Virus record (IMG/VR): IMGVR_UViG_2565956726_000012
Location: 1-40,724 of that record
From: a virus
Lineage: Duplodnaviria > Heunggongvirae > Uroviricota > Caudoviricetes
Reading direction: 5' to 3' (one strand)
DNA length: 40,724 nt
Positions within the stretch are counted from its first letter, which is position 1. Each line of letters begins with the position of its first letter. The notes under the pieces are model-generated. The model was not told the origin of the DNA, did not search any database, and was given only the letters and a program-made list of their open reading frames with translations. Shown one piece after another: positions 5,780-40,724 of the stretch. Position numbers and translations under genes: made by a program.

Positions 5780-5799
5780 TACTGTATAAATATACAGTT
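5780..5799. promoter_or_regulatory. LexA (SOS) box TACTGTATAAATATACAGTT
   Basis: CTGT-N8-ACAG with AT-rich spacer and TA flanks, near-consensus; 20 bp upstream of ATG 5820. Confidence 0.7.
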
Positions 5800-5819
5800 A
5801 TTGCATGGAGAAGATTAAG

Positions 5820-6077
5820 ATGCAGCAGTATCACTATCCACTGGAAGAGGGATTTACCGAAAGGATTCACACGCCGGGAGGCGTCAGGTCACTGGTGGAG
5901 GGATCGCACTTGATGAAATTACTCCGGGATCTCGATAAGGATGGATTTAATGTCGATGGCCCACTTGCCGAACTGACTGCACTGATTAACTACGTCACCA
6001 GCTCACAGATGTCTATGCAGGATCTGCAAACACATCTCGACTATTGTGCCGAACAATTACGAAAACAAACCAGATAA
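5820..6077 (+). CDS. Small standalone antirepressor C-terminal (ANT/KilAC-like) domain protein; candidate SOS-inducible antirepressor
   Basis: 85 aa; clearly alignable to the C-terminus of the downstream Bro-N antirepressor (GVRSLVEGSHLMKLLRDLDKDGFNVDG..AELT vs GVLGLTENSLLMNLLNQLQDDGHDVSG..AELT); GGAG RBS before ATG 5820; LexA box upstream. Confidence 0.55.
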   Translation: MQQYHYPLEEGFTERIHTPGGVRSLVEGSHLMKLLRDLDKDGFNVDGPLAELTALINYVTSSQMSMQDLQTHLDYCAEQLRKQTR

Positions 6078-6123: not shown

Positions 6124-6236
6124 ATTTACATCGCACTCCTCTTGTGCCATAGTAATCGGGCACTGGCAAAATCCAGTGCCGGGATTGGCGTCCCGAGTTA
6201 CTAAGTGGCGCATACCACGCCAGACGTGGTTTTTTT
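6116..6236 (+). ncRNA. Putative structured small RNA or leader element (c4/sar-like antirepressor control RNA) ending in an intrinsic terminator
   Basis: No ORF; hairpins GGCACTGG/CCAGTGCC (6159-6180) and CGGGA/TCCCG (6180-6195); terminator at 6214-6236; lies between a strong promoter and the ant gene. Confidence 0.35.
6214..6236 (+). terminator. Rho-independent terminator upstream of ant
   Basis: Stem ACCACG/CGTGGT, loop CCAGA, followed by 7 T. Confidence 0.65.
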
Positions 6237-6392
6237 ATGCGTTAAGCACAGCTATATCCGAATTATGGTGGGCTGGGCAGGGGTCCGAAAGGACGCCGGT
6301 ACCACTTAGGCCGGTACGCCAACCTTGTCCAGTTCACCACCAGTAATTGGCGTTGCGGTGGTGATTAAAATCACTAAGTGGAGATAACCACC

Positions 6393-7103
6393 ATGGCTAA
6401 TGCTCAAACTGCCATCTTCAAATTTGAATCTGTTAACCCTATCCGTTCCATCATTATCGATGGCCAACCATGGTTTGTAGCCCAAGACGTTTGTAGTGCG
6501 CTGCGCATCCAAAACGTCACCCAAGCACTTGAAAAACTGGATGATGATGAAAGGTCTATGTTCAACATAGGGCATGAATATCGTGCAATTTTTGACAGCC
6601 GAGTAAAAGAGATCAACATCATCTCCGAGTCAGGCCTCTACACACTGATCCTCCGCTGCCGCGACGCAGTGACACCGGGCACTATCCCCTACCGCTTTCG
6701 TAAATGGGTTACAGGTGAGGTTCTTCCTCAGATCCGCCGCACCGGAAGTTACATTAAAAACTCGCTCCCGCAGGAAGAACGCATAAAGATGGTTGCCGAC
6801 CAGGTTGCAAACGCCACAGCATCAGCAGTGATGCAGGCAATGAAGATAGAGAACAAAACCTACAGCGCCCCGCTGAAGCCCGGCTACCGCAGCCTGATTC
6901 ATTCTCCGTCTGGTGTTCTCGGCCTGACGGAGAACTCATTGCTGATGAATCTGCTGAATCAGTTGCAGGACGACGGGCATGATGTATCGGGCGCGGCGGC
7001 GGAGCTGACCACCATGTTTTGCTACATCGTTGGTGTGAGCAAATGCCTGCGTGATATCCAGACGCACGCGGAGTACATCAACGACAAGGCAGGGTTCTTC
7101 TGA
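6393..7103 (+). CDS. ant: Antirepressor, Bro-N N-terminal domain plus ANT-like C-terminal domain
   Basis: Bro-N-like N-terminus (FKFESVNPIRSIIIDGQPWFVAQDVCSALRI); GGAG RBS 9 nt before ATG 6393; the GTG at 6378 in the track is an unlikely start. Confidence 0.8.
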   Translation: MANAQTAIFKFESVNPIRSIIIDGQPWFVAQDVCSALRIQNVTQALEKLDDDERSMFNIGHEYRAIFDSRVKEINIISESGLYTLILRCRDAVTPGTIPYRFRKWVTGEVLPQIRRTGSYIKNSLPQEERIKMVADQVANATASAVMQAMKIENKTYSAPLKPGYRSLIHSPSGVLGLTENSLLMNLLNQLQDDGHDVSGAAAELTTMFCYIVGVSKCLRDIQTHAEYINDKAGFF

Positions 7104-7148: not shown

Positions 7149-7191
7149 TTGCAGACCGGGGGTGAATAGCGTACTATTACCTCAAGGGTAA
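7149..7191 (+). promoter_or_regulatory. Sigma70-like promoter (TTGCAG-17-TACTAT) with operator copy I (TTACCTCAAGGGTAA)
   Basis: Same -10-abutting operator architecture as copy B. Confidence 0.55.
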
Positions 7192-7251: not shown

Positions 7252-7431
7252 ATGCGAAACGAAAAATTGCAGATGCGTAGAGCGCAAGCTGCCGCAAGAC
7301 GTTCTTTCAATGGAAGCGTAGAGTACGTAAAAGTTACTATGGCAAAAGATCACGCAAGTCGCGTATCCCGCGCTTTCTTTGATTCTCGTAACAATAAGGA
7401 AAATTATGAGTTCGTCTGCGTCGCAGAATGA
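7252..7431 (+). CDS. Small basic protein (59 aa), candidate antitoxin-like partner
   Basis: GAGGTAA RBS 5 nt before ATG 7252; Arg/Lys-rich; 3-prime end overlaps start of next gene by 26 nt; below the 60-aa cut-off of the ORF track. Confidence 0.35.
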   Translation: MRNEKLQMRRAQAAARRSFNGSVEYVKVTMAKDHASRVSRAFFDSRNNKENYEFVCVAE

Positions 7432-7951
7432 TAAAAATCAAATTGTCAGATATAAGGGTCGAGTATTGCATACGCAAAATTTCTCGGCCCTTTGTGCATC
7501 TGATCTTGAGCTGAAGAAAGTATCTGATGCCTTTGCCCAGTATTGGAAAACGGGATACCATCCATCTCTTGGTAAAGATGCTGCATTTGCTCGTCCGACA
7601 GAAATGCTTAAACTAAATGTCAGGCATGCTCATGTCGATAACCAAGACTATATTCCAGAAGATAGTGATAAAAAACACACTGGTAAAAAATCATCTTGGG
7701 ATGCATGGAAAAATATAGCGTCTGTACAAGTAAAATGCATACCAACAAGTGATTGCTTTTTAGTTTATTCGGTAAATCACAATCGTGATGCGCTGGTTAT
7801 GTTTTTTGTTGACGCAGATGCCCACAACATAACTGAGCAAGAAGAGTTTAAAGAGGCAGCAATCACTATCAGTTATCAATTCTTTGAGAAAACAAAAACA
7901 GAACCAATGCCTTTAGAAGAAGATCTTTTTTCTGATAAATGGAAGGAATAA
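7406..7951 (+). CDS. Hypothetical protein with possible YafO-like toxin N-terminal region plus acidic C-terminal extension
   Basis: AAGGAAA RBS before ATG 7406; segment GKDAAFARPTEMLKLNVRHAHVD recalls a YafO-family motif from memory only; AT-rich codon usage; own promoter and terminator. Confidence 0.45.
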   Translation: MSSSASQNDKNQIVRYKGRVLHTQNFSALCASDLELKKVSDAFAQYWKTGYHPSLGKDAAFARPTEMLKLNVRHAHVDNQDYIPEDSDKKHTGKKSSWDAWKNIASVQVKCIPTSDCFLVYSVNHNRDALVMFFVDADAHNITEQEEFKEAAITISYQFFEKTKTEPMPLEEDLFSDKWKE

Positions 7952-8229: not shown

Positions 8230-8243
8230 TGTGACATGTCACA
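8230..8243. repeat. Perfect 14-bp palindrome TGTGACATGTCACA (copy 1 of the GTGACATGTCAC family)
   Basis: Exact self-complementary sequence; same 12-bp core recurs at 25642-25653 and 27907-27918. Confidence 0.8.
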
Positions 8244-8804
8244 CTACATTGATATATGATTCATAAAGTAGCTTAAAGATTTACTTCCCAGAAAAGAAAT
8301 TTCTTTTCCTGGATATGTCGCAATAATTGAGCATGACTTATCCCCGTTAGAGGTAACAAATCCTGAATAACCTACTTGTTCTTTACCATTTTGTTGCTTG
8401 GCTAAAAAGTAGAGGTAGCTTATCTTTTTGCCCTCTGGGTAAAACTCTGCCAAACCAGTATCGGTGATTGAATATTTTATTCTCCCGCCTTGAGTAACGT
8501 TTTCCATCTCAAGTTTAGCTATGTCTTTTCTGTTGTATTCAGCATTGATTTTCCTTTTGAAATCAATGTTGTTTTCAAATGAGTAGGAAGCAACAGTCTG
8601 AATAGATGGGAACACGTTTATCTGGATGCCTCCACAGTCGGCACAGGTATAAAGGTATGAATCAGATGGAATCCCCATAAAAGAAAACTGAGTTACCTTA
8701 AATTTATCGCTATCTCCAAAGTATTGAAGTTCGCATTTAACATTTTTCCCTGCAAAAGAAAATGCAGACATCAATATTGAAACAAAAAATATAATTGCCT
8801 TCAT
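8244..8804 (-). CDS. AT-rich secreted protein (cargo gene), possible superinfection-exclusion or conversion function
   Basis: Signal peptide MKAIIFFVSILMSAFSFAG; markedly lower GC than neighbours; sits after the ejection-protein genes and before the tailspike. Confidence 0.6.
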   Translation of the reverse strand: MKAIIFFVSILMSAFSFAGKNVKCELQYFGDSDKFKVTQFSFMGIPSDSYLYTCADCGGIQINVFPSIQTVASYSFENNIDFKRKINAEYNRKDIAKLEMENVTQGGRIKYSITDTGLAEFYPEGKKISYLYFLAKQQNGKEQVGYSGFVTSNGDKSCSIIATYPGKEISFLGSKSLSYFMNHISM

Positions 8805-24972: not shown

Positions 24973-25049
24973 GTGGCATTAGCTCAGTCGGACAGAGCAA
25001 CCGCCTTCTAAGCGGTTGGTCGCAGGTTCGAATCCTGCATGCCACGCCA
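24973..25049 (+). tRNA. tRNA-Arg (anticodon UCU), phage-borne
   Basis: 77 nt cloverleaf: 7-bp acceptor stem GTGGCAT/ATGCCAC, D-arm GCTC..GAGC, anticodon loop CTTCTAA, T-arm GCAGG-TTCGAAT-CCTGC, discriminator G plus CCA; closely resembles argU-type tRNA. Confidence 0.9.
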
Positions 25050-25214: not shown

Positions 25215-25637
25215 ATGAAAACAGCCGACATGCTAGCTAAATATCTAAATGAATGGCCGTGCAAATATGTACGCATTGTTCAGGGTGATGACTCAATTTT
25301 TTATGGTGTTTTTGCAGGAAATGAAATGCTTTGTGAAGCAATTCCAGGTGAGCGACTTGCCGGGTTAACGCTTAGCGATGACCATGGAATAGGAGTTACT
25401 TGCCATGACTGGATTTCAGCGCAGAAAACTGAAATGGAAAAAGGCAATGTGTTTGATATTTCTCGCGCTGTATACGCCAAAGAAAAAAGTGATGATGATT
25501 ACATGCGCGAAAACTTATACAACATGAAGTTACAATGCCTGGCTGAAGTGCTTAGTAAAAGATCTTTACTTGATGTGGTTGGTGCTGAGCAGGACGCCAA
25601 GGCAATCAACGCCGCATTCGATAAAATAACCTTCTAA
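25215..25637 (+). CDS. Hypothetical protein (140 aa) in the plus-strand island between portal and terminase
   Basis: AAGGTGA RBS 5 nt before ATG; convergent with terminase; flanked by terminators. Confidence 0.6.
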   Translation: MKTADMLAKYLNEWPCKYVRIVQGDDSIFYGVFAGNEMLCEAIPGERLAGLTLSDDHGIGVTCHDWISAQKTEMEKGNVFDISRAVYAKEKSDDDYMRENLYNMKLQCLAEVLSKRSLLDVVGAEQDAKAINAAFDKITF

Positions 25638-25641
25638 CACC

Positions 25642-25653
25642 GTGACATGTCAC
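25642..25653. repeat. Palindrome GTGACATGTCAC (copy 2)
   Basis: Exact 12-bp palindrome 5 nt after the stop at 25637. Confidence 0.8.
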
Positions 25654-25727: not shown

Positions 25728-27203
25728 TTAAGCATACGGGTCATAATCTGTGATGGCCTTGCCTTGCTGGTTCTGCTGCCCAGGAATTCGCAGACGCTTC
25801 GACACAGGGAAAGCAAACGTCAGCAGTAGCGCATCGCCTTTACCCGGCGAACGCCCAAGCCGCTCCTTGATATCTTCCTTCGGTTCGATAACGATTTTAC
25901 CGTCCACACGAACTTTGTACTCTGCCGCTGACAGGTCGTCTGCAGTTTCCTGGTCATCCAGCATGCCGCCCAGCCTCAGCCATGTCTTACATGAGTTGAA
26001 CATCTCCCCACGCTTGTTAAGCATCTGCGGGTCAGTGGACGCACCGCCGAACGGAACAAGTTGCCATGTACGTCCCCAGCCATCACCGATTGACTTCAAA
26101 CCGGTTCCGTAACCGAAGTCGATGAACACCGCGTCAGCCTGATACTGGTCTTCAAAGTCAGCGATACGCTTCGCCATAATCAGATCGTCGGTGGTCTTGT
26201 TACCAGTCCATAGCACCTTACTGTGCAGCCCCTGCCGCAGGTATATCACCGCGTCATCAACGCCTGAGTATGCCGGGTCAACGCCGATTATCACCGGAGC
26301 ATGTGCAACCTGCGCAGCGGTTACCACCCGTTTCATTGCCTCATCAGTAAGACCGGTAGGGATAAACTGCAATTCAGATGCATCAGGGAATATGCCGCGC
26401 ACACGGATTTTAACGAAGTCGCTATCTTCCCCGTAGTCATCAACCCATTTCTGCAACTGCTGTTTGTTAGTGCCTTCCACCGTCCGGCTGTCAATCTGCG
26501 CAGTTTTCCAGCGGTGTTTATATTTGCGGAAACATTCGCGGAAACGCCCGGTGTTACGTGTAGGGTTTCCGAACGCTACCCAGATAATCTCAGTGTCTTC
26601 GTCCGTAAGCGCACCCTCAGCAACTTCCCACACCAGATCCGCAATGTTCGACGCTTCATCGAATACCACGATGATGCGTTTGCGCTCGTTGTGTAGTCCG
26701 GCGAACGCCTCAGTGTTGTGCTCAGACCAGGGGATTGCGTCAGCTCGCCACCGCTTGTCGTGCCCAGGGTCATTGCTGTACATCGCGGTAGCGGTACAGG
26801 TAAACCAGTCTTTCGTGATAGCAAGGTTTGACCACTTGATAATTTCCGGCCAGGTCTTCGTTCGTAGCTGGTTGTCGGTGTTGGCGGTCACCACGACCTT
26901 ACAATCCTCGCAAGTGGACATGCCCCAGTTGATCAGCATTGAGATGAATGCGGATTTACCAATACCGTGACCAGAAGCACGTGCCAGCATAAGCGGCTGA
27001 TATCGCGTCTCTGGATTCTGCAGGTGATCACGTATCTCTCGGAACGCATCAGCCTGCCACTGACGTGGGCCGGTAGCATGTGCCAGTTCAGTCCCTTCTT
27101 CCCCCCACGGGAACGCATAGAGGGCATAGCCAAGCGGATCGTGAGTGAACCCTGCAATATCCTCGATCAACTGCTCTTCAGGAGATAACGCTGTATCTGT
27201 CAC
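25728..27203 (-). CDS. terL: Terminase large subunit
   Basis: Walker A-like ARASGHGIGKSAF; ATPase plus nuclease architecture; 4-bp overlap with small subunit. Confidence 0.9.
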   Translation of the reverse strand: MTDTALSPEEQLIEDIAGFTHDPLGYALYAFPWGEEGTELAHATGPRQWQADAFREIRDHLQNPETRYQPLMLARASGHGIGKSAFISMLINWGMSTCEDCKVVVTANTDNQLRTKTWPEIIKWSNLAITKDWFTCTATAMYSNDPGHDKRWRADAIPWSEHNTEAFAGLHNERKRIIVVFDEASNIADLVWEVAEGALTDEDTEIIWVAFGNPTRNTGRFRECFRKYKHRWKTAQIDSRTVEGTNKQQLQKWVDDYGEDSDFVKIRVRGIFPDASELQFIPTGLTDEAMKRVVTAAQVAHAPVIIGVDPAYSGVDDAVIYLRQGLHSKVLWTGNKTTDDLIMAKRIADFEDQYQADAVFIDFGYGTGLKSIGDGWGRTWQLVPFGGASTDPQMLNKRGEMFNSCKTWLRLGGMLDDQETADDLSAAEYKVRVDGKIVIEPKEDIKERLGRSPGKGDALLLTFAFPVSKRLRIPGQQNQQGKAITDYDPYA

Positions 27204-27796
27204 TGATTGCCATCCTGACGTTCTTTCAGTCTCTTCCTGGCTGCCGCTATGCGATCAGCAATTGTCACATTCACATTAACATCCAGGCGTTCTTTGAACG
27301 CGTTGACATCAACATGCTTACCAATCAGCTCAAGGTTCTTCACCTTGTCAGGCCATTTAATTTTTTTGAGGATTGTCTCTATCGAATCCTCGTTCATGTT
27401 CATGATGGTCGATGACAGATCAAAGCCGCTAAGCGTAGTGCGCCAGATTTTCGGCCACTCGCGGATTGGTTTAAGGCTCCCATCGTCGTTGAGGATGTCG
27501 ATCACGTCCATCTGGTCGATCTCCACCAGGCGCATGAGAACGTAATCAGCACTGACGCGCATTCGTTTGTTGCGCTCCTCCATCAACTCGGCAATCCGTT
27601 TTTGAATGCGTTCATCGCGCATCATGACACTGGCTTTAACTGCCGCTGTATTTGGGGAGAATCCTGCGTTAATCGCTGCCTGAGTCTGGTTTTCAGGCGT
27701 TTTGATGTATGACTGGCAATAAGCCTCCTGCATTGCTGTTAGTGGCTTAAATTGCGTTGATTTGCGTTTATAGGTTTTAGGTTCAGCAGGCATCAT
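27200..27796 (-). CDS. terS: Terminase small subunit
   Basis: Conserved LTAMQEAYCQSYIKTPENQTQAAINAGFSP region; start at ATGATG 27796/27793; track extension to 27874 crosses a terminator hairpin. Confidence 0.8.
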   Translation of the reverse strand: MMPAEPKTYKRKSTQFKPLTAMQEAYCQSYIKTPENQTQAAINAGFSPNTAAVKASVMMRDERIQKRIAELMEERNKRMRVSADYVLMRLVEIDQMDVIDILNDDGSLKPIREWPKIWRTTLSGFDLSSTIMNMNEDSIETILKKIKWPDKVKNLELIGKHVDVNAFKERLDVNVNVTIADRIAAARKRLKERQDGNQ

Positions 27797-27813
27797 AACC
27801 ACCGTGGTAATTG

Positions 27814-27828
27814 TTACCGTTGTGGTAA
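27814..27828. promoter_or_regulatory. Operator copy J (TTACCGTTGTGGTAA) in the terminase upstream region
   Basis: On the minus strand preceded by TATTAT, the same -10-abutting arrangement as other copies. Confidence 0.5.
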
Positions 27829-27840
27829 TAATACCATGCA

Positions 27841-27866
27841 AAATAAAGCCGCCATAGTTGGCGGCA
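27841..27866 (-). terminator. Rho-independent terminator just upstream of terminase genes (tR-prime-like)
   Basis: Stem GCCGCC/GGCGGC with 6-nt loop; on minus strand followed by CTTTATTT. Confidence 0.5.
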
Positions 27867-27906
27867 GTATTCAAAATCCATCAAATTCATCATGCATAAT
27901 CTACTC

Positions 27907-27918
27907 GTGACATGTCAC
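27907..27918. repeat. Palindrome GTGACATGTCAC (copy 3)
   Basis: Exact 12-bp palindrome overlapping the stop codon of the zinc-ribbon protein gene. Confidence 0.8.
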
Positions 27919-28253
27919 ACTATTAATTTCGTTTCATGCCAGCCTTTAGTCACCCAGCATTGCGAGTCACCATTACACGGGCATGAATTAACTGGAACTC
28001 TCTCGCCGCACTTACCGCAACGTTTTCTGCTGATCGATTTTATACGCCCGCGCACACGTGCATCATCCTGGCGGATCAGTAACGCTATATACTCACCAAA
28101 TTCGTAAGGCGCACGCCCGGGGCGACGCGTGGCACAGTTACGCTCCAGCATTTCAATTTCCTGAGCATCAAGCACAATTTCCAGCTTACGCACACCAGAT
28201 GCAGCTTGTCTGGCTCTCTGAGCGGCTTTGCGCTCTGCTGCTGATTTAGCCAT
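27915..28253 (-). CDS. Small protein with C-terminal zinc-ribbon (candidate late-gene regulator)
   Basis: C-terminal CGKCG...CPC...C cysteine cluster; AAGGT RBS; immediately upstream of terminator and terminase. Confidence 0.5.
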   Translation of the reverse strand: MAKSAAERKAAQRARQAASGVRKLEIVLDAQEIEMLERNCATRRPGRAPYEFGEYIALLIRQDDARVRGRIKSISRKRCGKCGERVPVNSCPCNGDSQCWVTKGWHETKLIV

Positions 28254-29755: not shown

Positions 29756-30473
29756 CGCTTTGCTCTCCTGCATCTCCTTTGGTGCGAATTCCAGCGGCGC
29801 GTGGCACATTAACTTCCACGATGCGCACAGTTGGTTTGTACATCTCAATCGCAGTCAGCCAGTCAGCGCCAGTCATGCGCTTTTCTGCATCGCCATTAGT
29901 CCACTTAACCGGTACACCAATAGCCTTCATCGCGATTTCTATTTCCCCGGCAATGGCGCTTTTTCCGCAACCAGTAAAACCAGATACAACGACCAGAACT
30001 TCACCTTTGGCTGGTTTTATTTCCCGCGCTTCCAGTTCTGCTATGCGCTTACTTCCATCCGAGATAACACCTTCGTAATACTCGCGCTGCTCGTTGAGTT
30101 TTGATTTTGCTGCTTCAAGCTCAACGCGCAGCTTCCCAACCGTAAGCGCAATATCCTCGTTCTCCTGGTCACGGCGTTTGATGTATTGCTGGTTTCTTTC
30201 CCTTTCATCCAGTAGTGCCAGCACGGTAGCTGGATTGGCTGCGGCGATGAATTCAGCATTGGCCTGCTGTTCCATTTGGAAATCTTCATAGAAACGGCTT
30301 TCTGGATGCGCTCCTTCAATTCTGCAAATAGGAATATATCCAGCAACCTCGCGATGAATTAGTGCATCATCACCATCAAATCGTCCCTCTCCATATTCGA
30401 GCGACCACACACCACACGTTGCTTTCTCTGCCTTTTCACGCAGTGCCTGATAGTCAATTGTCATTCTCGCCAT
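29742..30473 (-). CDS. Ead/Ea22-like protein
   Basis: N-terminal MTIDYQALREKAEKAT..WS and central coiled-coil resemble the Ea22 family of lambdoid prophages. Confidence 0.65.
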   Translation of the reverse strand: MARMTIDYQALREKAEKATCGVWSLEYGEGRFDGDDALIHREVAGYIPICRIEGAHPESRFYEDFQMEQQANAEFIAAANPATVLALLDERERNQQYIKRRDQENEDIALTVGKLRVELEAAKSKLNEQREYYEGVISDGSKRIAELEAREIKPAKGEVLVVVSGFTGCGKSAIAGEIEIAMKAIGVPVKWTNGDAEKRMTGADWLTAIEMYKPTVRIVEVNVPRAAGIRTKGDAGEQSDEKP

Positions 30474-31105
30474 CCTTCACAGTTGTAATCACTACAGCCT
30501 TCAAAATCATATGGGCTGTACTGCCAGGTTATTTTTCCGCAATGCGGACAATTCCAACGCACCTTCCCGCTTCGCGACTTCTTTCTTCTGTTCTGCTCTT
30601 TCAACCAGTCAGGCATGACCAAACCTGCGCCCTGAACCATTGTTCTGCGGTTAAAGTTATTGATATTGAACGTCCGGCGCTTTGCTGCATCAGCAATGGA
30701 AAATGGCAACCAAACTATTCCTGGTTCGTTTTTGTTGGCGACGCTAAAGATGGTCGCTTTACTGAAGTCATCTGTTGGCAATCCACCGTGTTGAAGCCAG
30801 TAAACATCGTTGCCGTTCCAGCTGCCTTTTTTGTAGGCCACATACGCAGTGCAATCTGACTCAATCAGGCTTTCTGTAGGGATGTACTGGCAATCAACGT
30901 GCCACACAGCCATTGCATCCACACTATCGGCACAAACAGGCTGATCGATATCTCGCCCACAATTCCAGGCTTTTTGGGCTTCTTCCAGCGTGTAAACATG
31001 AGCGCGATCGATATCAGAACTGTAACCATTGCCGTTATGGCAATGGAATGAAGCGTTATTACCCACAGTTTCACGCAAGCACATCATGTAAAAGCGGTTA
31101 TTCAC
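30461..31105 (-). CDS. Hypothetical protein with C-terminal CPHC zinc-ribbon
   Basis: 214 aa, operon context among lambdoid accessory genes. Confidence 0.5.
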   Translation of the reverse strand: MNNRFYMMCLRETVGNNASFHCHNGNGYSSDIDRAHVYTLEEAQKAWNCGRDIDQPVCADSVDAMAVWHVDCQYIPTESLIESDCTAYVAYKKGSWNGNDVYWLQHGGLPTDDFSKATIFSVANKNEPGIVWLPFSIADAAKRRTFNINNFNRRTMVQGAGLVMPDWLKEQNRRKKSRSGKVRWNCPHCGKITWQYSPYDFEGCSDYNCEGWRE

Positions 31106-32459: not shown

Positions 32460-33260
32460 TTACTTGATAAATCCTGCCGCCTTTCCCCGCCTGTATTCCT
32501 CCATCAGCCACTGCGCCGGTGTTATTCCCCCAAGGGTGGCGGCGTTAGGCATGCACCCGAAACTTCGCCCTGGTGGATGGTAAACGTCTCTCCCTGTGTC
32601 CGGAGGCGTACTCATGGGCTCTGGCTTTGCCTGTATGCTGATCACCGGATCGGGTATCTGCTGTCCGGAAGCCACCTTTTTCGCCCAATCATCGAGCAGC
32701 CTGCGTGCGTGTTTCTCAACCTCAATCTCGCTAAGCTGGCGCTGATACATTGCACGGCGGGTATCACATACGACCCAGTACATAACCGGATGTCGCCACG
32801 GGAATCTTTCGGGACCACCAGGATATAAACTTTTTTCCTTGCTGTACCGGTGAAACTCCGCCATCACATCGTCAATGGTGACGCCAAGAACCATCTTGCT
32901 GTCTTTGCACCACTTGATAAATTGCCCTGGAGACGGCCAGAACGGAGATTCACTGGCGCGGGCGTGGCGCATACCAGCAGAAACCTGTTCACGGGTTCGG
33001 ATCCCCCCTTCGGCAAACGCAGCAATCCACTGCTGTTTTGCAGCAACTTCCTGCTCTGGCGTCTTCAGGTTGGTTACCACTGCCGCCGGAAACAGTTGTT
33101 TCAGCTGTTTAAAAAGGGCATCAACAAGCCTCTCTGCTGACATGTTCACCACATTGTCATTGTTGACGTACTGATGCTCATAACCTGACATGCGAGAAAG
33201 GGCTTCTCCGTCACGGTTTTGTATCGCGGTAAAAACGTTGTTCACAAGAAATCCTCCCAT
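32460..33260 (-). CDS. Replication protein P-like helicase loader
   Basis: Region QQWIAAFAEGGIRTREQVSAGMRHARASESPFWPSPGQFIKWCK aligns with lambda P as recalled. Confidence 0.75.
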   Translation of the reverse strand: MGGFLVNNVFTAIQNRDGEALSRMSGYEHQYVNNDNVVNMSAERLVDALFKQLKQLFPAAVVTNLKTPEQEVAAKQQWIAAFAEGGIRTREQVSAGMRHARASESPFWPSPGQFIKWCKDSKMVLGVTIDDVMAEFHRYSKEKSLYPGGPERFPWRHPVMYWVVCDTRRAMYQRQLSEIEVEKHARRLLDDWAKKVASGQQIPDPVISIQAKPEPMSTPPDTGRDVYHPPGRSFGCMPNAATLGGITPAQWLMEEYRRGKAAGFIK

Positions 33261-34057
33261 GCTTCAGGGCTGTTCCAGTGCGGAACGTTGTTATCAGGTA
33301 ATGTTGATTGCTTCTGTCTGCTAATCTGCAGCCGCCTTGCCAGCTTCTGCTCCCACTGTGCCTGATGGTATGCCTTACCCTCAGCCATCCAGTAAATTCT
33401 GAACTCTGCAAGTTCCTGTGCCGTTGGCAGACTGTCCAGGTAGATTCCCTGCAATGAGCTTTTCCGAAGAAAGTCATCTGATGGCTGCCATTGTTCATGC
33501 ATGACAAATTTACCTAATTGCCCTGGCCCACCAGGAGGAACAAAGTTATTCATCACGGCGTTGTTTGCGCCGGGGTCATGAGGAACAGAATCCCCGGTTT
33601 TTGTCCTGCTCTCCCTCTCTTGGTTAAATGACTGGTTATATGACTGGTTCTGGATCCCGTTTTTGGGATCATTCAACATCCCGTTTTTGGGATCATTCAA
33701 CATCCCGTTTTTGGGTATATTCCCGTTTTCGGTAACATTACCGTTTTCGGGTTCATTGCCCCCCTCCCGGTTGCCTTTAATGTTCCCGTTTTTGGTTATA
33801 TTAAGAGAGAAAACCCGCACTCTTTTTGTCGCTCCCTTTCTCTCTCCGGTATCTGAAATAAGCCCCATTTTCATGAGCGATATAAGCCCGGCCTGCACGG
33901 TTTTTTTATTCAGGCAAGTGTCTTTAACGAGGCGTTCTATGCTGGGGTAGCAGAGGTTATATTCATCGGCTCTGTCAGCCATCGAGAGCAGTATGAGCTT
34001 TAATGATGAGCTACCTGGATCTGTCTCCCAGGCCCAATCTGTTGCATGTCTGCTCAT
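33242..34057 (-). CDS. Replication initiator O-like protein containing the iteron origin
   Basis: N-terminal winged-helix-like region; central Asn/Gly-rich amino-acid repeats encoded by DNA iterons. Confidence 0.7.
   Translation of the reverse strand: MSRHATDWAWETDPGSSSLKLILLSMADRADEYNLCYPSIERLVKDTCLNKKTVQAGLISLMKMGLISDTGERKGATKRVRVFSLNITKNGNIKGNREGGNEPENGNVTENGNIPKNGMLNDPKNGMLNDPKNGIQNQSYNQSFNQERESRTKTGDSVPHDPGANNAVMNNFVPPGGPGQLGKFVMHEQWQPSDDFLRKSSLQGIYLDSLPTAQELAEFRIYWMAEGKAYHQAQWEQKLARRLQISRQKQSTLPDNNVPHWNSPEAWEDFL
33653..33800. repeat. Replication origin iterons (about 6 copies of TCCCGTTTTTGGGAT-like repeat)
   Basis: Two exact 24-bp tandem units CATCCCGTTTTTGGGATCATTCAA plus degenerate copies at 18-24 bp period, inside the O-like gene. 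Confidence 0.75.
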
Positions 34058-34072
34058 GATTAATCTCCGCTA

Positions 34073-34273
34073 TCAGCTTGAGTGTTGTGGGGAGGAATTA
34101 ATCATGATCTGCTTAATCTCTGCCCTGATGCGACGGTTTGATTCCATGGTGCACTCAACACAGTGTCCGTTGTAAACCCAGCGTTCACTGTCATGTCCGT
34201 GCTTACATGGTTTTCCGGTGTAGTAGCGTTTAAGTCCGCGCTTTGCGGCATCAATACGTGTAATGATTTCCAT
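34073..34273 (-). CDS. Small zinc-finger protein at the CII-equivalent position
   Basis: C-x-H-x-H...C-x2-C cluster; between Cro-like and O-like genes; start chosen at ATG 34273. Confidence 0.4.
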   Translation of the reverse strand: MEIITRIDAAKRGLKRYYTGKPCKHGHDSERWVYNGHCVECTMESNRRIRAEIKQIMINSSPQHSS

Positions 34274-34353
34274 GGTAAGCCCTGTTATTAGTATTGGGAT
34301 TACGGTCATTTTGTGCTGACACAAAAAAAAGATCAACCAGATTTGGTTATTTA

Positions 34354-34368
34354 TTACCTTTGAGGTAC
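34354..34368. promoter_or_regulatory. Operator copy F (TTACCTTTGAGGTAC)
   Basis: One mismatch in the right half-site; between tR1-like terminator and the CII-position gene. Confidence 0.45.
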
Positions 34369-34375
34369 GAATAGA

Positions 34376-34401
34376 TATGAAAAGACCGCCGGGTGGCGGT
34401 C
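34376..34401 (-). terminator. tR1-like terminator after the Cro-like gene
   Basis: Stem GACCGCC/GGCGGTC with 4-nt loop, short U-tract on minus strand. Confidence 0.45.
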
Positions 34402-34423
34402 TACAGAGGGTTGTAGCTGGATA

Positions 34424-35701: not shown

Positions 35702-36001
35702 ATGAACGTTAATCAGCAGAAAAATCTTCAAAAAATCATGCTGGCATTCGACAAGGACTACCGCCTGTCAGAACAGCTATATGACCGACAAGTTGAACTG
35801 ATTGAGAGCATCCGACTTCATCAACTGTCCTCAACTTTCGACGTTGTAACAGGCAAAGGCGTTCGTCAGGAAGTGCTGGAGGCTGCTAAAGACAGCCCTG
35901 AGTTCGAAGAACTGGTGGATGCCTACCGGCGCGAGGCAATGGCAATTATAGCGCGCTGGGATCTGGCGGATCAGCTTGATGGGCAGAGGGACGCGGCATG
36001 A
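35702..36001 (+). CDS. Hypothetical early protein
   Basis: GAGGG RBS; immediately upstream of exonuclease gene. Confidence 0.5.
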   Translation: MNVNQQKNLQKIMLAFDKDYRLSEQLYDRQVELIESIRLHQLSSTFDVVTGKGVRQEVLEAAKDSPEFEELVDAYRREAMAIIARWDLADQLDGQRDAA

Positions 36002-38336: not shown

Positions 38337-38636
38337 GTGAGAAAGTTAAGCCGACTTGAAAAATATCACATGAATAAGGTTTCAATGCGCAGTCCGTCAA
38401 AGATTGTCGCCGTTACTCCTGCGGCGATAGAGATCGAAAAACGCGCGATTGAAAGAGAGAAAAAAGGGCAATTCCGCATTGCCGCTCACCTTTGGCTTCA
38501 GTGTATGGATGTTGCTTCTGGTGATGTTGAACGTGCAAGGATCGCGGTTCGCAGGGACCAATGTATCACAAAAGGTAACGGCCTTCGCCGTGGCGACTAT
38601 AGCGGCATAGGATGTTGTGGGGTGGTTTATGACTAA
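38337..38636 (+). CDS. PerC-like transcriptional activator candidate
   Basis: Segment AIEIEKRAIEREKKGQFRIAAHLWLQCMD resembles the PerC/Pch family as recalled; start codon ambiguous (GTG 38337, ATG 38370 or 38385). Confidence 0.4.
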   Translation: MRKLSRLEKYHMNKVSMRSPSKIVAVTPAAIEIEKRAIEREKKGQFRIAAHLWLQCMDVASGDVERARIAVRRDQCITKGNGLRRGDYSGIGCCGVVYD

Positions 38637-39473: not shown

Positions 39474-40724
39474 TTATTCCCCCGCCATCCACTTCTCAAA
39501 CTTCGACGGGGAGAACGGAATCAGATCCGTATGCTCCCCGTCAATCCATGAATCAATCATATCGGCCCACTGCTGCAACATGTAGGCGCGCTGTCTGGCG
39601 TATTCCGCTTTGTTATATACGGCGCGCACACCTTTCTGCTCATGTGCCAGAGCCTTTTCAATCCAGTCTGAAGGATAACCAGCCTCATGCAACAACGTAC
39701 TGGCTGTACGGCGCATATCATGTACAGTGAAGTCCTGAATATGCTCACCATCTTCATTTATTATTTTCACCGTTCTGTCGATCAGAGAGTTCAGCGCGGC
39801 ATTAGATAATGGCTTCCGGAAATTGTAACGACCAGGAACCAGATATTCACTTCCACCAGCGCACATCTGCAACCCGACCAATATATCCTGTGCCTGTTTA
39901 GGCAGGTAAATAACGTGCGCCCGGCTTCCCTTCATGCGGTCTGGAGGAATTGTCCATGTCCATTTTTTAAAATCTATTTCATCCCACGTTGCATTGGTGA
40001 ATTCGCCCTTACGAACCATAGTGATAAGCACCAGTTTTAAAGCCATTTTCATAGTGCCCATAGCACCAATGGCATCCAGCGTGCGGAAGAACAGGCCAAT
40101 TTCTTCTGGTGTCAGTGTTCGCTCTCGTGGTTTAAATATGGCGATAGACGAAGGTTTAATGTCAGCCGCAGGATTAAACAAACCATGACCACGGTCATTG
40201 GCGTGACGGTATACGCTACTGATGATCTCCCTGGCCTGCACTGCTGTTGCCCGGCCACCGCGTTCGACAATCCGGTCACACAAATCACGAACCATCGATG
40301 TGGTAATTTCAGCCATCATTTTATTGCCAAGAACCGGAAGTATGTCACGGTCGATCACCGCCTGTTTCATTGCGCGGGTACTGTCAGCCAGGATGACGTG
40401 TTTCATATAACTGTCGGTATGTACCGCAAACGTCTCGGCACCACGAATCTTTTTGATACCGTCACGTTTAGCCGCAGCCGGTGACTGGCCTGCTTTAAGC
40501 AGCTTCTTTGCAGCAATCAGTTCTTCTCGCGCTTCTGCCAGGCTGATACCGTCACGCCCATACTGCCCGATTACCAGTGTTTCGCGGCGACCGTTGATAC
40601 GGTAGTCATAGCGAAACGAGACCGTGCCTGACGTAAGCACAGCTACATACAGCCCGTCACGATCGGAGACCTTGTACAGTTTGTCCTGCGGCTTGAGGTT
40701 TTTTAATTTTGTATCGGTAAGCAC
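39474..40724 (-). CDS. int: Tyrosine integrase (P4-like family), 5-prime end at window edge
   Basis: N-terminal LTDTKLKNLKP...DGLYVAVLTSG...FRYDYR typical of P4-like integrase arm-binding domain; C-terminal catalytic region with HxxR and terminal Tyr region; GTG at the very last window codon so the true start may lie outside. Confidence 0.85.
   Translation of the reverse strand: MLTDTKLKNLKPQDKLYKVSDRDGLYVAVLTSGTVSFRYDYRINGRRETLVIGQYGRDGISLAEAREELIAAKKLLKAGQSPAAAKRDGIKKIRGAETFAVHTDSYMKHVILADSTRAMKQAVIDRDILPVLGNKMMAEITTSMVRDLCDRIVERGGRATAVQAREIISSVYRHANDRGHGLFNPAADIKPSSIAIFKPRERTLTPEEIGLFFRTLDAIGAMGTMKMALKLVLITMVRKGEFTNATWDEIDFKKWTWTIPPDRMKGSRAHVIYLPKQAQDILVGLQMCAGGSEYLVPGRYNFRKPLSNAALNSLIDRTVKIINEDGEHIQDFTVHDMRRTASTLLHEAGYPSDWIEKALAHEQKGVRAVYNKAEYARQRAYMLQQWADMIDSWIDGEHTDLIPFSPSKFEKWMAGE

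Follow-up and report, generated by a model that had tools for sequence, protein, structure and literature searches.

A candidate DNA-binding protein and palindrome pair beside a putative repressor-controlled promoter at the early–late junction of an ε15/phiV10-like phage

The packaging operon of the phage studied here most likely has its own repressor-controlled promoter, with the intrinsic terminator upstream of it merely closing the early operon. The window, by which we mean the whole 40,724-nucleotide stretch of DNA that was analysed, is the genome of a Uetakevirus (an ε15/phiV10-like temperate phage), and the junction is the seam between its early-right operon and its packaging (late) operon. 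Gene order is the same as in the ε15 GenBank record AY150271.2 (gp49, rho-independent terminator, repressor binding site, terS); the layout was hence largely annotated already and is not new, and it is not a switch of the lambda Q type. A protein of 112 amino acids and a 12-bp palindrome, GTGAC-N2-GTCAC, form a pair at this seam that had not been described before and that is shared among many unrelated temperate phages. The best explanation for the whole, which we hold tentatively and at slightly less than an even chance, combines an early-operon terminator, a repressor-controlled late promoter, the DNA-binding protein with its palindrome, and a role for this pair at operon boundaries.

A preliminary description of this DNA had proposed a regulatory junction ahead of the late (packaging) operon. 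This proposal is supported, and the elements listed there (the ORF, palindrome, terminator, operators and terS start) are present where it had placed them and are non-random as judged by sequence and scans. The last gene of the early-right operon is the ORF of the 112-aa protein (27915..28253, minus strand, ATG at 28253). Its TGA stop (27915-27917) lies inside a palindrome, GTGACATGTCAC (27907..27918), referred to below as the E site and probably the cognate site of the protein. The terminator scan places the intrinsic terminator that ends the operon at 27838..27867 on the minus strand, where the hairpin GCCGCCA-ACTA-TGGCGGC (27865..27848; stem GCCGCCA/TGGCGGC, loop ACTA) is followed by the tail TTTATTTT. 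The 91-nt region around it folds as RNA with z = -2.2, and the terminator is kept in ε15, where it is annotated as rho-independent, and in PAT1.

Downstream of the terminator lies a putative extended -10 element of the packaging/late operon, TGgTATTAT (27828..27836, minus strand), without a -35 box and with a predicted start near 27821. In the pattern TGnTAYTAT, the TG and the TAYTAT are constant in 80 relatives and in ε15 and PAT1, while the base between them varies (G, T or A). The operator TTACCACAACGGTAA (27814..27828), a perfect TTACC-N5-GGTAA, has the final T of the -10 hexamer as its first base, and a second operator with one mismatch, TTACCACGGTGGTTA (27796..27810; ε15 equivalent TTACTTCGGTGGTAA), covers the Shine-Dalgarno sequence and abuts the terS ATG. 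Both are conserved in the same 80 relatives and in ε15 and PAT1. The gene that follows, for the small terminase (terS; 27200..27796, minus strand), was identified by Pfam Terminase_2 (E = 1e-29) and by annotated relatives; it is the first late/packaging gene and starts at the ATG at 27796, or at 27793 according to the alignment with ε15 and TL-2011b. An extended -10 element that abuts two repressor operators downstream of a terminator makes it most likely that the packaging operon has a promoter of its own. We infer this promoter from sequence, conservation and the ε15 annotation; lacking a -35 box, it could need an activator.

The identity of the operator is consistent across the genome. The window has 15 TTACC-N5-GGTAA sites where 0.68 would be expected; none of 100 shuffles reached 15, and the sites include the PL/PR region next to the homologous repressor gene. 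A -10 hexamer also abuts an operator at PL (AATTAT/TACC) and at 7177 (TACTAT/TACC). The window repressor is 43% identical to the annotated ε15 repressor, and the orthologous operator is annotated 'repressor' in ε15. What had been listed earlier as 'operator copy J' is thus present and is the operator of the prophage repressor, as annotated in the ε15 record. That record also has repressor sites ahead of the portal and tailspike units. Multi-operator networks such as those of ε15/SPC32H Rep and the mycobacteriophage 'stoperators' are comparable: in the window, a single repressor operator recurs about 15 times throughout the genome, where early, accessory and late units begin. Unlike stoperators, the operators of the window are palindromic and lie on promoters (-10 to +15) rather than acting as orientation-dependent blocks of elongation. 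This comparison concerns the repressor operator and not the zinc protein.

In lambda, Q is followed by a promoter, a terminator and then the late genes. The junction does share with the lambda Q/PR'/tR' region a small zinc protein gene just before the late genes, an intrinsic terminator in between, and late genes co-oriented with the early-right operon, and the preliminary description had read it as a layout of that kind. This reading does not hold, as the order here is gene, palindrome, terminator, extended -10, two operators and terS, with no terminator between the promoter element and the late genes. In contrast to lambda, the terminator comes before the promoter element, the late promoter carries repressor operators, the palindrome lies outside the promoter, and homology to Q is lacking. 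No constitutive promoter with a factor site inside it and a terminator behind it, ahead of the late genes, was found at the junction; the sole promoter-like match over the palindrome (GTGACA-18-CATGAT, 9/12) is not conserved. The earlier statement that no Q-family protein is present elsewhere was borne out: neither the 112-aa protein nor any other window ORF scanned against Pfam, PHROG and NCBIfam matched a Q or N family, and among the matches listed for 59 members of the protein family none is to a Q family of the Q-lambda, Q82 or Q21 type. The profile search against antiterminator and late-activator families that had been suggested as a check (Pfam, PHROG, NCBIfam, hhalign) gave the 112-aa protein no Q, N or Ogr identity.

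The protein itself belongs to the family of ε15 gp49 and N15 gp46 (PHROG 536; profile match phrog_536, E = 1.6e-54, residues 1-111), with tblastn identities of 77% to ε15 gp49 and 35% to N15 gp46. Phages carrying this family infect Enterobacterales, Vibrio and Aeromonas. Annotations of the gene elsewhere go no further than hypothetical or a generic 'transcriptional regulator'. The ε15 record calls gp49 hypothetical and 'similar to N15 gp46' and annotates neither the palindrome nor a promoter, and the paper on vB_EcoP_ZX5 does not cover this gene. The protein comprises a basic N-terminal helix, a ribbon-helix-helix (RHH)-like beta-alpha-alpha unit at about residues 20-74, which shows the beta-strand, helix, helix succession of that fold, and a Cys-rich zinc finger (C79, C82, C91/C93, C99); its cysteines are C79, C82, C91, C93, C99 and also C40. 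RHH proteins such as CopG/Arc/MetJ, P22 Arc/Mnt, AmrZ, TacA and E. coli YbfE differ from it in that the 112-aa protein adds a C-terminal zinc finger and that its candidate site is a single 12-bp palindrome, which has three scattered copies and is associated with the 3' end of the gene instead of its promoter.

For the finger, the nearest class is TraR/YbiI, short DksA-family proteins of the RNA polymerase secondary channel with phage homologues such as lambda Orf73. TraR/YbiI-type proteins are the top three PDB profile matches (E = 0.02), and hhalign probabilities are 71% for TraR, 52% for YbiI and 1% for DksA. Shared features are a long helix, a CxxCGxxhP...FxGxxxC finger and a C-terminal helix, and C79-x2-C82-x16-C99 aligns with the CxxC-x17-CxxC finger. 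Unlike these proteins, the 112-aa protein has a 46-residue N-terminal extension, its fourth cysteine is displaced to C91/C93, and the DxxDxA tip motif, which TraR needs for activity (PMC9239242), is absent, with R44, R47 and P49 at the aligned positions. The finger has no Pfam match; zf-dskA_traR is not among the 25 most widely matched of the 44 families listed at E <= 1 when 59 family members were scanned. With the motif missing and no Pfam match, full TraR identity is ruled out, and Foldseek gave no significant match in the PDB. The protein combines an RHH-like N-terminal part with a zinc finger distantly like that of TraR/YbiI. The earlier idea of a small zinc protein acting as a regulator is accordingly plausible in the sense of a nucleic-acid binder with an RHH-like fold and a finger of borderline similarity to TraR and YbiI, both of which bind RNA polymerase, and we regard the protein as a candidate site-specific DNA-binding protein.

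The palindrome is far more frequent than chance. The window has its exact 12-mer 3 times, where composition predicts about 0.04, and GTGAC is the only half-site of a 5+2+5 palindrome with at least 3 copies there. Of ten phage genomes or contigs with a member of the family that were examined, every one has GTGAC-N2-GTCAC, although about 0.04 copies each would be expected; it is present in exactly three copies in eight of them, which span five lineages: the window, ε15, PAT1, ZF40, N15, phiKO2, Vibrio K233 and the IMG/VR contig L095. No copy occurs in 146 kb of family-negative controls; PY54 (Yersinia enterocolitica), the family-negative sister of N15 and phiKO2, and CMS-2020a (E. coli, 100 kb) have none. 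The enrichment is confined to the 2-nt spacing of the GTGAC/GTCAC half-sites. The same scan recovered CGACC-N2-GGTCG in four copies each in N15 and phiKO2, the number of annotated phiKO2 partitioning sites, and we take these to be the SopB centromeres, by count and not by coordinates; the method thus looks able to detect real sites. With the SopB sites assigned in this way to a separate family, GTGAC-N2-GTCAC as the N15 SopB centromere is ruled out. Strict co-occurrence together with linkage to the gene argues that GTGAC-N2-GTCAC is probably the binding site of the 112-aa protein. A literature search found no paper containing GTGACATGTCAC. The pair also occurs in N15, phiKO2, ZF40 and many Vibrio, Aeromonas and Klebsiella phages.

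The gene linkage is seen in the position of the palindrome at or adjoining the stop codon of the homologue in ε15, PAT1, TL-2011b, ZF40, N15 and phiKO2. Across four lineages it overlaps or abuts the stop of the family gene, with proteins just 35-100% identical, and at the E site it is unaltered in 75 of 80 close relatives (mutated or missing in 5). Alternatively, the palindrome may not be bound by a phage protein at all, and could be a host-factor site (MatP- or SlmA-like), a recombination or mosaic boundary, or a coding constraint at the stop codon. Its half-sites resemble matS, the outer GTGA/TCAC matches the SlmA site, the sequence of relatives diverges right after the palindrome at the E site and at a second site described below, and half of the E-site palindrome overlaps Val-stop codons. 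Yet in ZF40 it lies 2 nt past the TAA stop, in Aeromonas 59.1 within the gene and in Vibrio-type phages 140-230 nt downstream of the gene, so that a coding constraint cannot account for it. In each genome, two of the three copies are distant from the gene, and the family-negative PY54 and CMS-2020a, whose hosts are of the same family, have no copies. We consider this alternative very unlikely. In other lineages, the palindrome precedes a start codon by 9-19 nt (N15 gene 47; terS in two Vibrio-type phages) or lies inside repA, gp08, a cII-like gene or the homologue itself, and neighbouring palindromes are often 2.3-2.7 kb apart.

Within the window, the two further copies also lie at the ends of transcription units. 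The T site (25642..25653) separates the stop of the large terminase gene from a convergent accessory cassette (tRNA-Arg and a 140-aa ORF), and the plus strand there reads stop, palindrome, hairpin and T-run in sequence. It is unaltered in 45 of 52 relatives though the flanks and even the hairpin stem vary, and is mutated or missing in the remaining 7. The S site (8231..8242) lies 1 nt past the stop of the last gene of the structural operon (8244..8804, minus strand) and 1 nt ahead of the terminator hairpin of that operon; orthologues are found in ε15 (19517) and PAT1 (3438). Among Uetakevirus palindromes, eight of nine have a terminator-like hairpin within 40 nt, against 6.8% of random positions, with the invariable polarity stop, palindrome, hairpin, T-run. 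In relatives, the palindrome is kept while the adjoining hairpin stems and flanks are swapped. As altered sites occur (5/80 E sites, 7/52 T sites), the palindromes may be non-essential. Outside Uetakevirus a terminator-like hairpin is near just 1 of 17 palindromes, which indicates that a terminator-linked role is not the general function of the family; a universal partnership of palindrome and terminator is ruled out, the pairing being restricted to Uetakevirus.

Between E site and terminator, the window has a 41-nt spacer that contains an eight-codon remnant ORF, MHDEFDGF* (ATG CAT GAT GAA TTT GAT GGA TTT TGA; 27871..27897, minus strand), recognised by comparison with IMG/VR relatives, e.g. 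L056. The ORF is intact at 70 aa in about a third of close relatives. By this comparison, the spacer is a deletion remnant, filler with no dedicated control element. The distance from palindrome to terminator or promoter is 22 nt in ε15, 41 nt in the window and about 235 nt in relatives. The ε15 junction otherwise matches as an orthologous locus, with GTGACATGTCAC at the stop of the gp49 gene, a terminator, and paired TTACC-N5-GGTAA operators before terS. A structured RNA in the intergenic region is ruled out, with rseX as the only match (28.6 bits, below the gathering score of 50).

A varying distance between palindrome and terminator would fit a factor that rides on RNA polymerase. In such an antitermination mechanism, a generalised form of what the preliminary description had suggested, the 112-aa protein would dock at the palindrome by its N-terminal domain and its TraR-like zinc module would engage RNA polymerase coming from the upstream unit, leading to read-through of the next terminator into terS-terL and delayed late expression without Q. 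The gene is the last early one, directly upstream of the late genes, in a genome without Q or N; TraR-type proteins are likewise encoded late in phage early operons (PMC9239242). A terminator follows the palindrome at all three Uetakevirus sites, each late-unit boundary has a single palindrome, and N15 and phiKO2 each have one palindrome 108-113 nt ahead of an annotated terminator in the leader of the antirepressor operon. The protein would moreover be made in lytic growth only, when disabling terminators makes sense, and its finger resembles that of TraR/YbiI and not Ogr or DksA. However, polymerases initiating at the conserved promoter element, which lies with the operators beyond the E-site terminator, would never encounter the E site, and no conserved promoter overlaps the palindrome. 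Polarity at the T site serves the reverse-oriented accessory gene and not late transcription; read-through would send antisense transcripts into terL. N15, phiKO2 and ZF40 have both a homologue and a genuine Q-like gene, and there the homologue is not beside the late genes; the missing DxxDxA motif and displaced fourth cysteine weaken the parallel with TraR. Antitermination therefore appears unlikely, though it deserves more weight than the alternative of an unbound palindrome.

The same variation in distance bears on a late activator of the Ogr/Delta or Mu C kind, by which the protein on the palindrome would recruit RNA polymerase to the weak extended -10 element. The lack of a -35 box at the terS promoter, the location of the gene in the usual place of late activators, the palindrome upstream of this promoter and the Vibrio-type phages with a palindrome just before terS would all suit such a role. 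Among close relatives, however, the distance from palindrome centre to -10 ranges from about 70 to about 285 bp, and an activator site at fixed distance is ruled out. From the T and S sites it is 0.4-2.5 kb to the next operator of a late unit. In Vibrio-type phages and N15, the site is followed by the ribosome-binding site and any possible promoter would lie before it; such a location suits a repressor or roadblock, not an activator. Similarity to Ogr is also lacking: hhalign gave 0.3%, and no homology to P2 Ogr or P4 Delta was found in the 112-aa protein. We judge an activator very unlikely.

Perhaps the palindromes act largely independently of transcription, with dimers on the three copies bridging or organising phage DNA in the manner of MatP (looping, condensation or exclusion of host factors). 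MatP/matS of the E. coli Ter macrodomain has identical GTGAC/GTCAC half-sites, MatP uses an RHH fold, and sites are few and dispersed per replicon. The clade with MatP/matS matches the host range of the family (Enterobacterales, Vibrio, Aeromonas). Exactly three copies in eight genomes or contigs of five lineages, adjacent sites often 2.3-2.7 kb apart, and lineage-specific positions, even within repA, gp08 or a cII-like gene, would be expected if presence and number alone matter. Unlike the 12-bp palindrome with its N2 spacing, matS is a 13-bp site (GTGACRNYGTCAC); the 13-bp N3 form has no copies in the window, ε15, PAT1, ZF40, N15 or phiKO2 and is missing from eight of nine genomes scanned. 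The phage-encoded protein has no homology to MatP (hhalign probability 0.7%), with neither its four-helix bundle nor its coiled coil, and the precise position of the sites, just 0-5 nt away from hairpins in Uetakevirus but 9-19 nt before starts elsewhere, suggests a coupling to gene expression. An architectural role is thus doubtful.

In the explanation that we prefer, early transcription ends at the intrinsic terminator at 27838-27867. The extended -10 element TGnTAYTAT just downstream, overlapped from its last base by two tandem repressor operators, would drive terS and terL as a promoter of their own, which the repressor would shut directly in the lysogen, without antitermination of the Q type. 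The 112-aa protein, with its RHH-like half and its TraR/YbiI-like finger, would bind GTGAC-N2-GTCAC at the three palindromes that close three units, namely the early operon, the accessory cassette facing terL and the structural operon. Produced only after derepression, it would occupy these unit boundaries in lytic growth. The bound protein may then serve as a gate or roadblock, strengthening the ends of the units and excluding early and convergent transcription from the late operons, so that each late unit, as proposed, fires solely from its own repressor-controlled promoter. This gate or roadblock role at the three palindromes is the less certain part and, taken on its own, somewhat unlikely. 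A lytic-only protein beside terminators could as logically switch them off. More speculatively, and with rather little probability, gp49/gp46 could be a DNA-tethered relative of TraR that sits on boundary palindromes and switches termination on or off as a Q-independent late switch, or else a MatP mimic that bridges three points. As a tethered TraR, the switch would be common to ε15-like, N15-like, ZF40-like and Vibrio phages; the MatP mimic would use the matS-like half-sites.

Phages of the ε15/phiV10 type lack Q and are used for the detection and biocontrol of E. coli O157 and Salmonella. For these phages, our analysis argues for direct repressor control of the late units, and it isolates a testable pair, the 112-aa protein and a 12-bp palindrome at three fixed positions. 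If the protein binds the palindrome, a function would be assigned to a widespread phage gene family. The pair would then define a compact, orthogonal module for DNA binding and perhaps a new kind of transcription control at operon boundaries.

The sequence around the junction shares 93-98% identity with phages of the genus Uetakevirus (ε15-like temperate podophages), among them phiV10, TL-2011b, vB_EcoP_ZX5 and the O157 typing phages 9 and 10. On the minus strand, a cro-like gene, replication genes and accessory genes (DUF551, DUF4222, Ea22-like) are followed by the 112-aa ORF, the small terminase (terS), the large terminase (terL), the portal and onward. This order therefore places the 112-aa gene where the early-right operon meets the packaging/late operon. 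The ORF, Cys cluster, palindrome, hairpin and operator listed in the preliminary description were all found in place. The ORF (27915..28253, minus strand; ATG start; C79, C82, C91, C93, C99) ends with a TGA stop inside the palindrome GTGACATGTCAC (27907-27918). The 41 nt between the palindrome and the terminator are what is left (MHDEFDGF*) of a 70-aa ORF, which roughly one third of close relatives keep whole. The terminator hairpin, GCCGCCA-ACTA-TGGCGGC, is followed by TTTATTTT (27865..27838, minus strand). Immediately past the T-run lie an extended -10 element (TGgTATTAT, 27836..27828, minus strand), a perfect TTACC-N5-GGTAA operator (27814-27828) and a one-mismatch copy (27796-27810) reaching into the terS ATG. 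These features are more than chance, with 15 operator copies in the window against 0.68 expected and three copies of the 12-mer palindrome against ~0.04.

There is nothing new in the layout itself, since the architecture is essentially already annotated at the orthologous locus of ε15 (AY150271.2). There, gp49 carries the description "similar to N15 gp46", and the record further marks a rho-independent terminator at 39646-39672, a site bound by the repressor at 12-27 and the small terminase at 47-643. Additional "repressor" sites are listed in the immunity region and ahead of both the tailspike and the portal unit. Because of this annotation, the 43% identity of the window repressor to the protein annotated as repressor in ε15, and the 15 copies of TTACC-N5-GGTAA also present in ε15, the site previously termed operator copy J is the prophage-repressor operator.

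While a late-control junction was indeed found, its proposed likeness to the Q/PR'/tR' arrangement was not supported. In lambda the terminator lies between late promoter and late genes, whereas here the terminator comes first, followed by the conserved -10 element and then the late genes. The TG and TAYTAT hexamer of this element are kept in 80 IMG/VR relatives, ε15 and PAT1, with G, T or A as the intervening base. The first base of the terS operator is the last T of the -10 hexamer; the same abutment occurs at 7177 (TACTAT|TACC) and at PL (AATTAT|TACC), the latter with a consensus TTGACA -35. In the simplest reading of the sequence, terS and terL would be driven from their own promoter, which the repressor would block directly in the lysogen, and the hairpin would terminate the early operon. 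Profile checks against antiterminators and late activators found no Q-, N- or Ogr-like proteins across the window, matching the earlier statement that no recognisable Q-family protein is present elsewhere. Homologues of the 112-aa protein occur alongside Q-like genes in N15 (gp46; Q = gp40), phiKO2 and ZF40 (gp22; gp25), and in these phages they do not adjoin the late genes. The spacing between palindrome and terminator ranges from 22 nt in ε15 through 41 nt in the window to ~235 nt in relatives, which counts against a fixed-geometry activator site. A lambda Q-type module at the junction is thus not supported, given the lack of a Q protein, the terminator preceding the conserved promoter element and the coexistence of homologues with Q.

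The 112-aa protein is covered end to end by the PHROG 536 profile (E = 1.6e-54) and matched no Pfam family. Clustering at 90% left 726 homologues, every one of them bearing the name "hypothetical" or "phage protein", and an exhaustive search gave only 154 clusters at 50% identity. They derive from Escherichia, Salmonella, Klebsiella, Enterobacter, Pectobacterium, Yersinia (P2-like), Aeromonas and Vibrio, with Vibrio phages as the most numerous source. Aligning 59 diverse members reveals a basic RK..QR.R segment and a strand-like GxxxxExxL in the N-terminal part, two helices in the middle (…LxxxC, PYxxxEYxxxLI) and a C-terminal C-x2-C-G-x2-L-P…G-D-x2-C-W, in which C79 and C82 never vary and C99 is almost invariant. 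The AlphaFold2 model is confident (mean pLDDT 93). Weak matches to YbfE, RHH_5, RepB-RCR_reg and RHH_1 agree with an RHH-like part, and a search of PDB sequences with the family profile gave two TraR entries and YbiI as its best hits (E = 0.02-0.04 over residues 48-111), with hhalign probabilities of 71% for TraR and 52% for YbiI, and of only 1% for DksA, 0.3% for Ogr and 0.7% for MatP. The DxxDxA motif with which TraR contacts the active-site region of polymerase (PMC9239242) aligns to R44, R47 and P49, and the fourth zinc-finger cysteine is displaced. Based on these matches, the missing motif and the displaced cysteine, the protein can be described as an RHH-like domain with a degenerate TraR/YbiI-type zinc finger, although strictly speaking it belongs to neither family.

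The palindrome GTGAC-N2-GTCAC, expected ~0.04 times per genome, is present in exactly three copies in the window (8231, 25642, 27907), ε15 (2142, 19517, 39612), PAT1 (3438, 23124, 26302), ZF40 (5125, 7622, 14944), N15 (28550, 33237, 39269), phiKO2 (32783, 37663, 43540), Vibrio phage K233 (21342, 33227, 35942) and the IMG/VR contig L095 (2401, 10501, 13026), whose homologue is 38% identical. Aeromonas phage 59.1 has one copy, within the homologue's own coding sequence, and a P2-like Yersinia phage also has one. The half-sites are enriched at the 2-nt spacing only, and in shuffled genomes any half-site reached three copies in just 0-3% of trials. In Uetakevirus, ZF40, N15 and phiKO2, one palindrome overlaps or abuts the stop codon of the family gene (2 nt past the TAA in ZF40), even though proteins of these lineages share as little as 35% identity. 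The palindrome is absent from PY54, the gene-lacking sister of N15 and phiKO2, and from 100 kb of CMS-2020a, an E. coli phage that is family-negative. The E site (27907) is intact in 75 of 80 close relatives and the T site (25642) in 45 of 52, while the DNA just past the palindrome, even the neighbouring hairpin stem, is exchanged among them. Copy number, stop-codon linkage, absence from family-negative controls and persistence in relatives together lead us to infer that the palindrome is probably the cognate DNA site of the 112-aa protein. The 12-mer was not found in the literature searched, and a conserved, gene-linked protein-palindrome pair in at least six phage lineages, with characteristically three copies, is apparently new. 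In relatives L010-L089, similarity breaks right after the palindrome at the E (27905/27906) and T (25654) sites, beyond which downstream genes and hairpin stems differ; the palindromes thus coincide with mosaic module boundaries.

A scan for 5+2+5 palindromes with at least three copies also returned CGACC-N2-GGTCG, four times each in N15 and phiKO2. As the phiKO2 record annotates four partitioning sites, we take these, by copy number alone, to be the SopB centromeres; CCAGC-N2-GCTGG likewise occurs four times in phiKO2. The 13-bp matS of E. coli (GTGACRNYGTCAC) has the same half-site as the phage palindrome, and its binding protein MatP is an RHH protein as the phage protein is RHH-like, but the spacing differs and no homology between the proteins was detectable, so that the likeness is one of analogy only.

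The repressor operator is scattered over the whole genome (5496, 5728, 6109, 7177, 8428, 24636, 27796, 27814, 32346, 32408, 34354, 34691, 34739, 35451, 35513), fronting early, accessory and late units in what looks like a genome-wide single-repressor network. At several promoters in the window, the -10 hexamer ends exactly on the operator's first T. The terminator-then-operator arrangement of terS recurs at 34354-34402 (minus strand), right past the cro-like gene, with a hairpin (34402..34383, minus strand) and an operator GTACC-N5-GGTAA (34354-34368) preceding a 67-aa Cys/His-rich ORF (34074-34276, PHROG 1081). Between the terminase and portal genes lies a reverse-oriented cassette of a tRNA-Arg (anticodon TCT; 24973-25049, plus strand) and a 140-aa ORF (PHROG 4846; 25215-25637, plus strand), with its own TTGACA promoter, which operator 24636 overlaps, and a palindrome plus terminator at its end. 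Two Rfam families scored above their gathering thresholds, isrK (6160-6236, plus strand; 67 bits) and C4 antisense RNA (6261-6344, plus strand; 66 bits); these matches directly precede a Bro-N antirepressor-like gene (6378-7103, plus strand), and for this reason the set looks like a P1/N15-type anti-immunity cassette within an ε15-like phage; its operon also holds a YafO-toxin-like ORF (7379-7951, plus strand). A near-consensus LexA box (AACTGTATATTTATACAGTA, 5780-5799), also conserved in ε15, lies between the tailspike gene and a divergent 90-aa ORF (5805-6077), which fits the LexA-controlled small antirepressor described for the related phage SPC32H. Six direct repeats of ~18-24 nt (ATCCCGTTTTTGGGAT...; 33654-33806) within the DnaT/HTH_36 replication-initiator gene (33242-34057, minus strand) are probably the iterons of the origin, comparable to those in the O gene of lambda. 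The left operon encodes a PerC-like activator domain (38337-38636, plus strand), and the ORF at 30461-31105 (minus strand; PHROG 2457) encodes 214 aa with a CxxC...CxxC cluster at the C-terminal end.

Outside Uetakevirus, only one of 17 palindromes lies near a hairpin. Copies are found 9-19 nt upstream of the start codons of N15 gene 47 and of terS in K233 and L095, the terS copies of these two Vibrio-type lineages being the GTGACACGTCAC palindrome at 11-19 nt (K233, 35918-35953; L095, 13026), and others lie inside repA. In K233, a further inverted half-site stands ahead of the terS palindrome (GTCAC-C-GTGAC-AC-GTCAC). In N15 and phiKO2, a copy sits in the antirepressor-operon leader, ~110 nt before the terminator annotated there; we take this leader to be that of the equivalent anti-immunity operon. 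Such positions would suit a factor that works on polymerase during transcription, as a block or a Q-like loader, or else an architectural protein; they do not suit a classical upstream activator. Of the earlier suggestion of the zinc protein as a candidate antiterminator or activator, it stands that the protein is probably a regulator.

Within three Uetakevirus genomes, eight of nine palindromes have a terminator-like hairpin no more than 40 nt away, as opposed to 6.8% of random positions, in the invariable order of gene stop, palindrome, hairpin and T-run. In the window, the E site ends the early operon, the S site (8231) ends the structural operon with a hairpin 1 nt away, and the T site ends the reverse-oriented accessory cassette facing the large terminase gene. 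Antitermination by the 112-aa protein at these palindromes is a less probable reading, as at the T site it would push antisense transcription into terL. Chiefly because the polarity of the T site serves the accessory gene, we tentatively favour a gate or roadblock; the palindrome positions outside Uetakevirus weaken this reading. The late units each open with a repressor operator (27814, 24636, 5728). Since the protein would be produced only upon derepression, it would sit at the ends of the units in lytic growth, a phase in which derepression extends to the early and accessory promoters, and might there reinforce the boundaries between transcription units.
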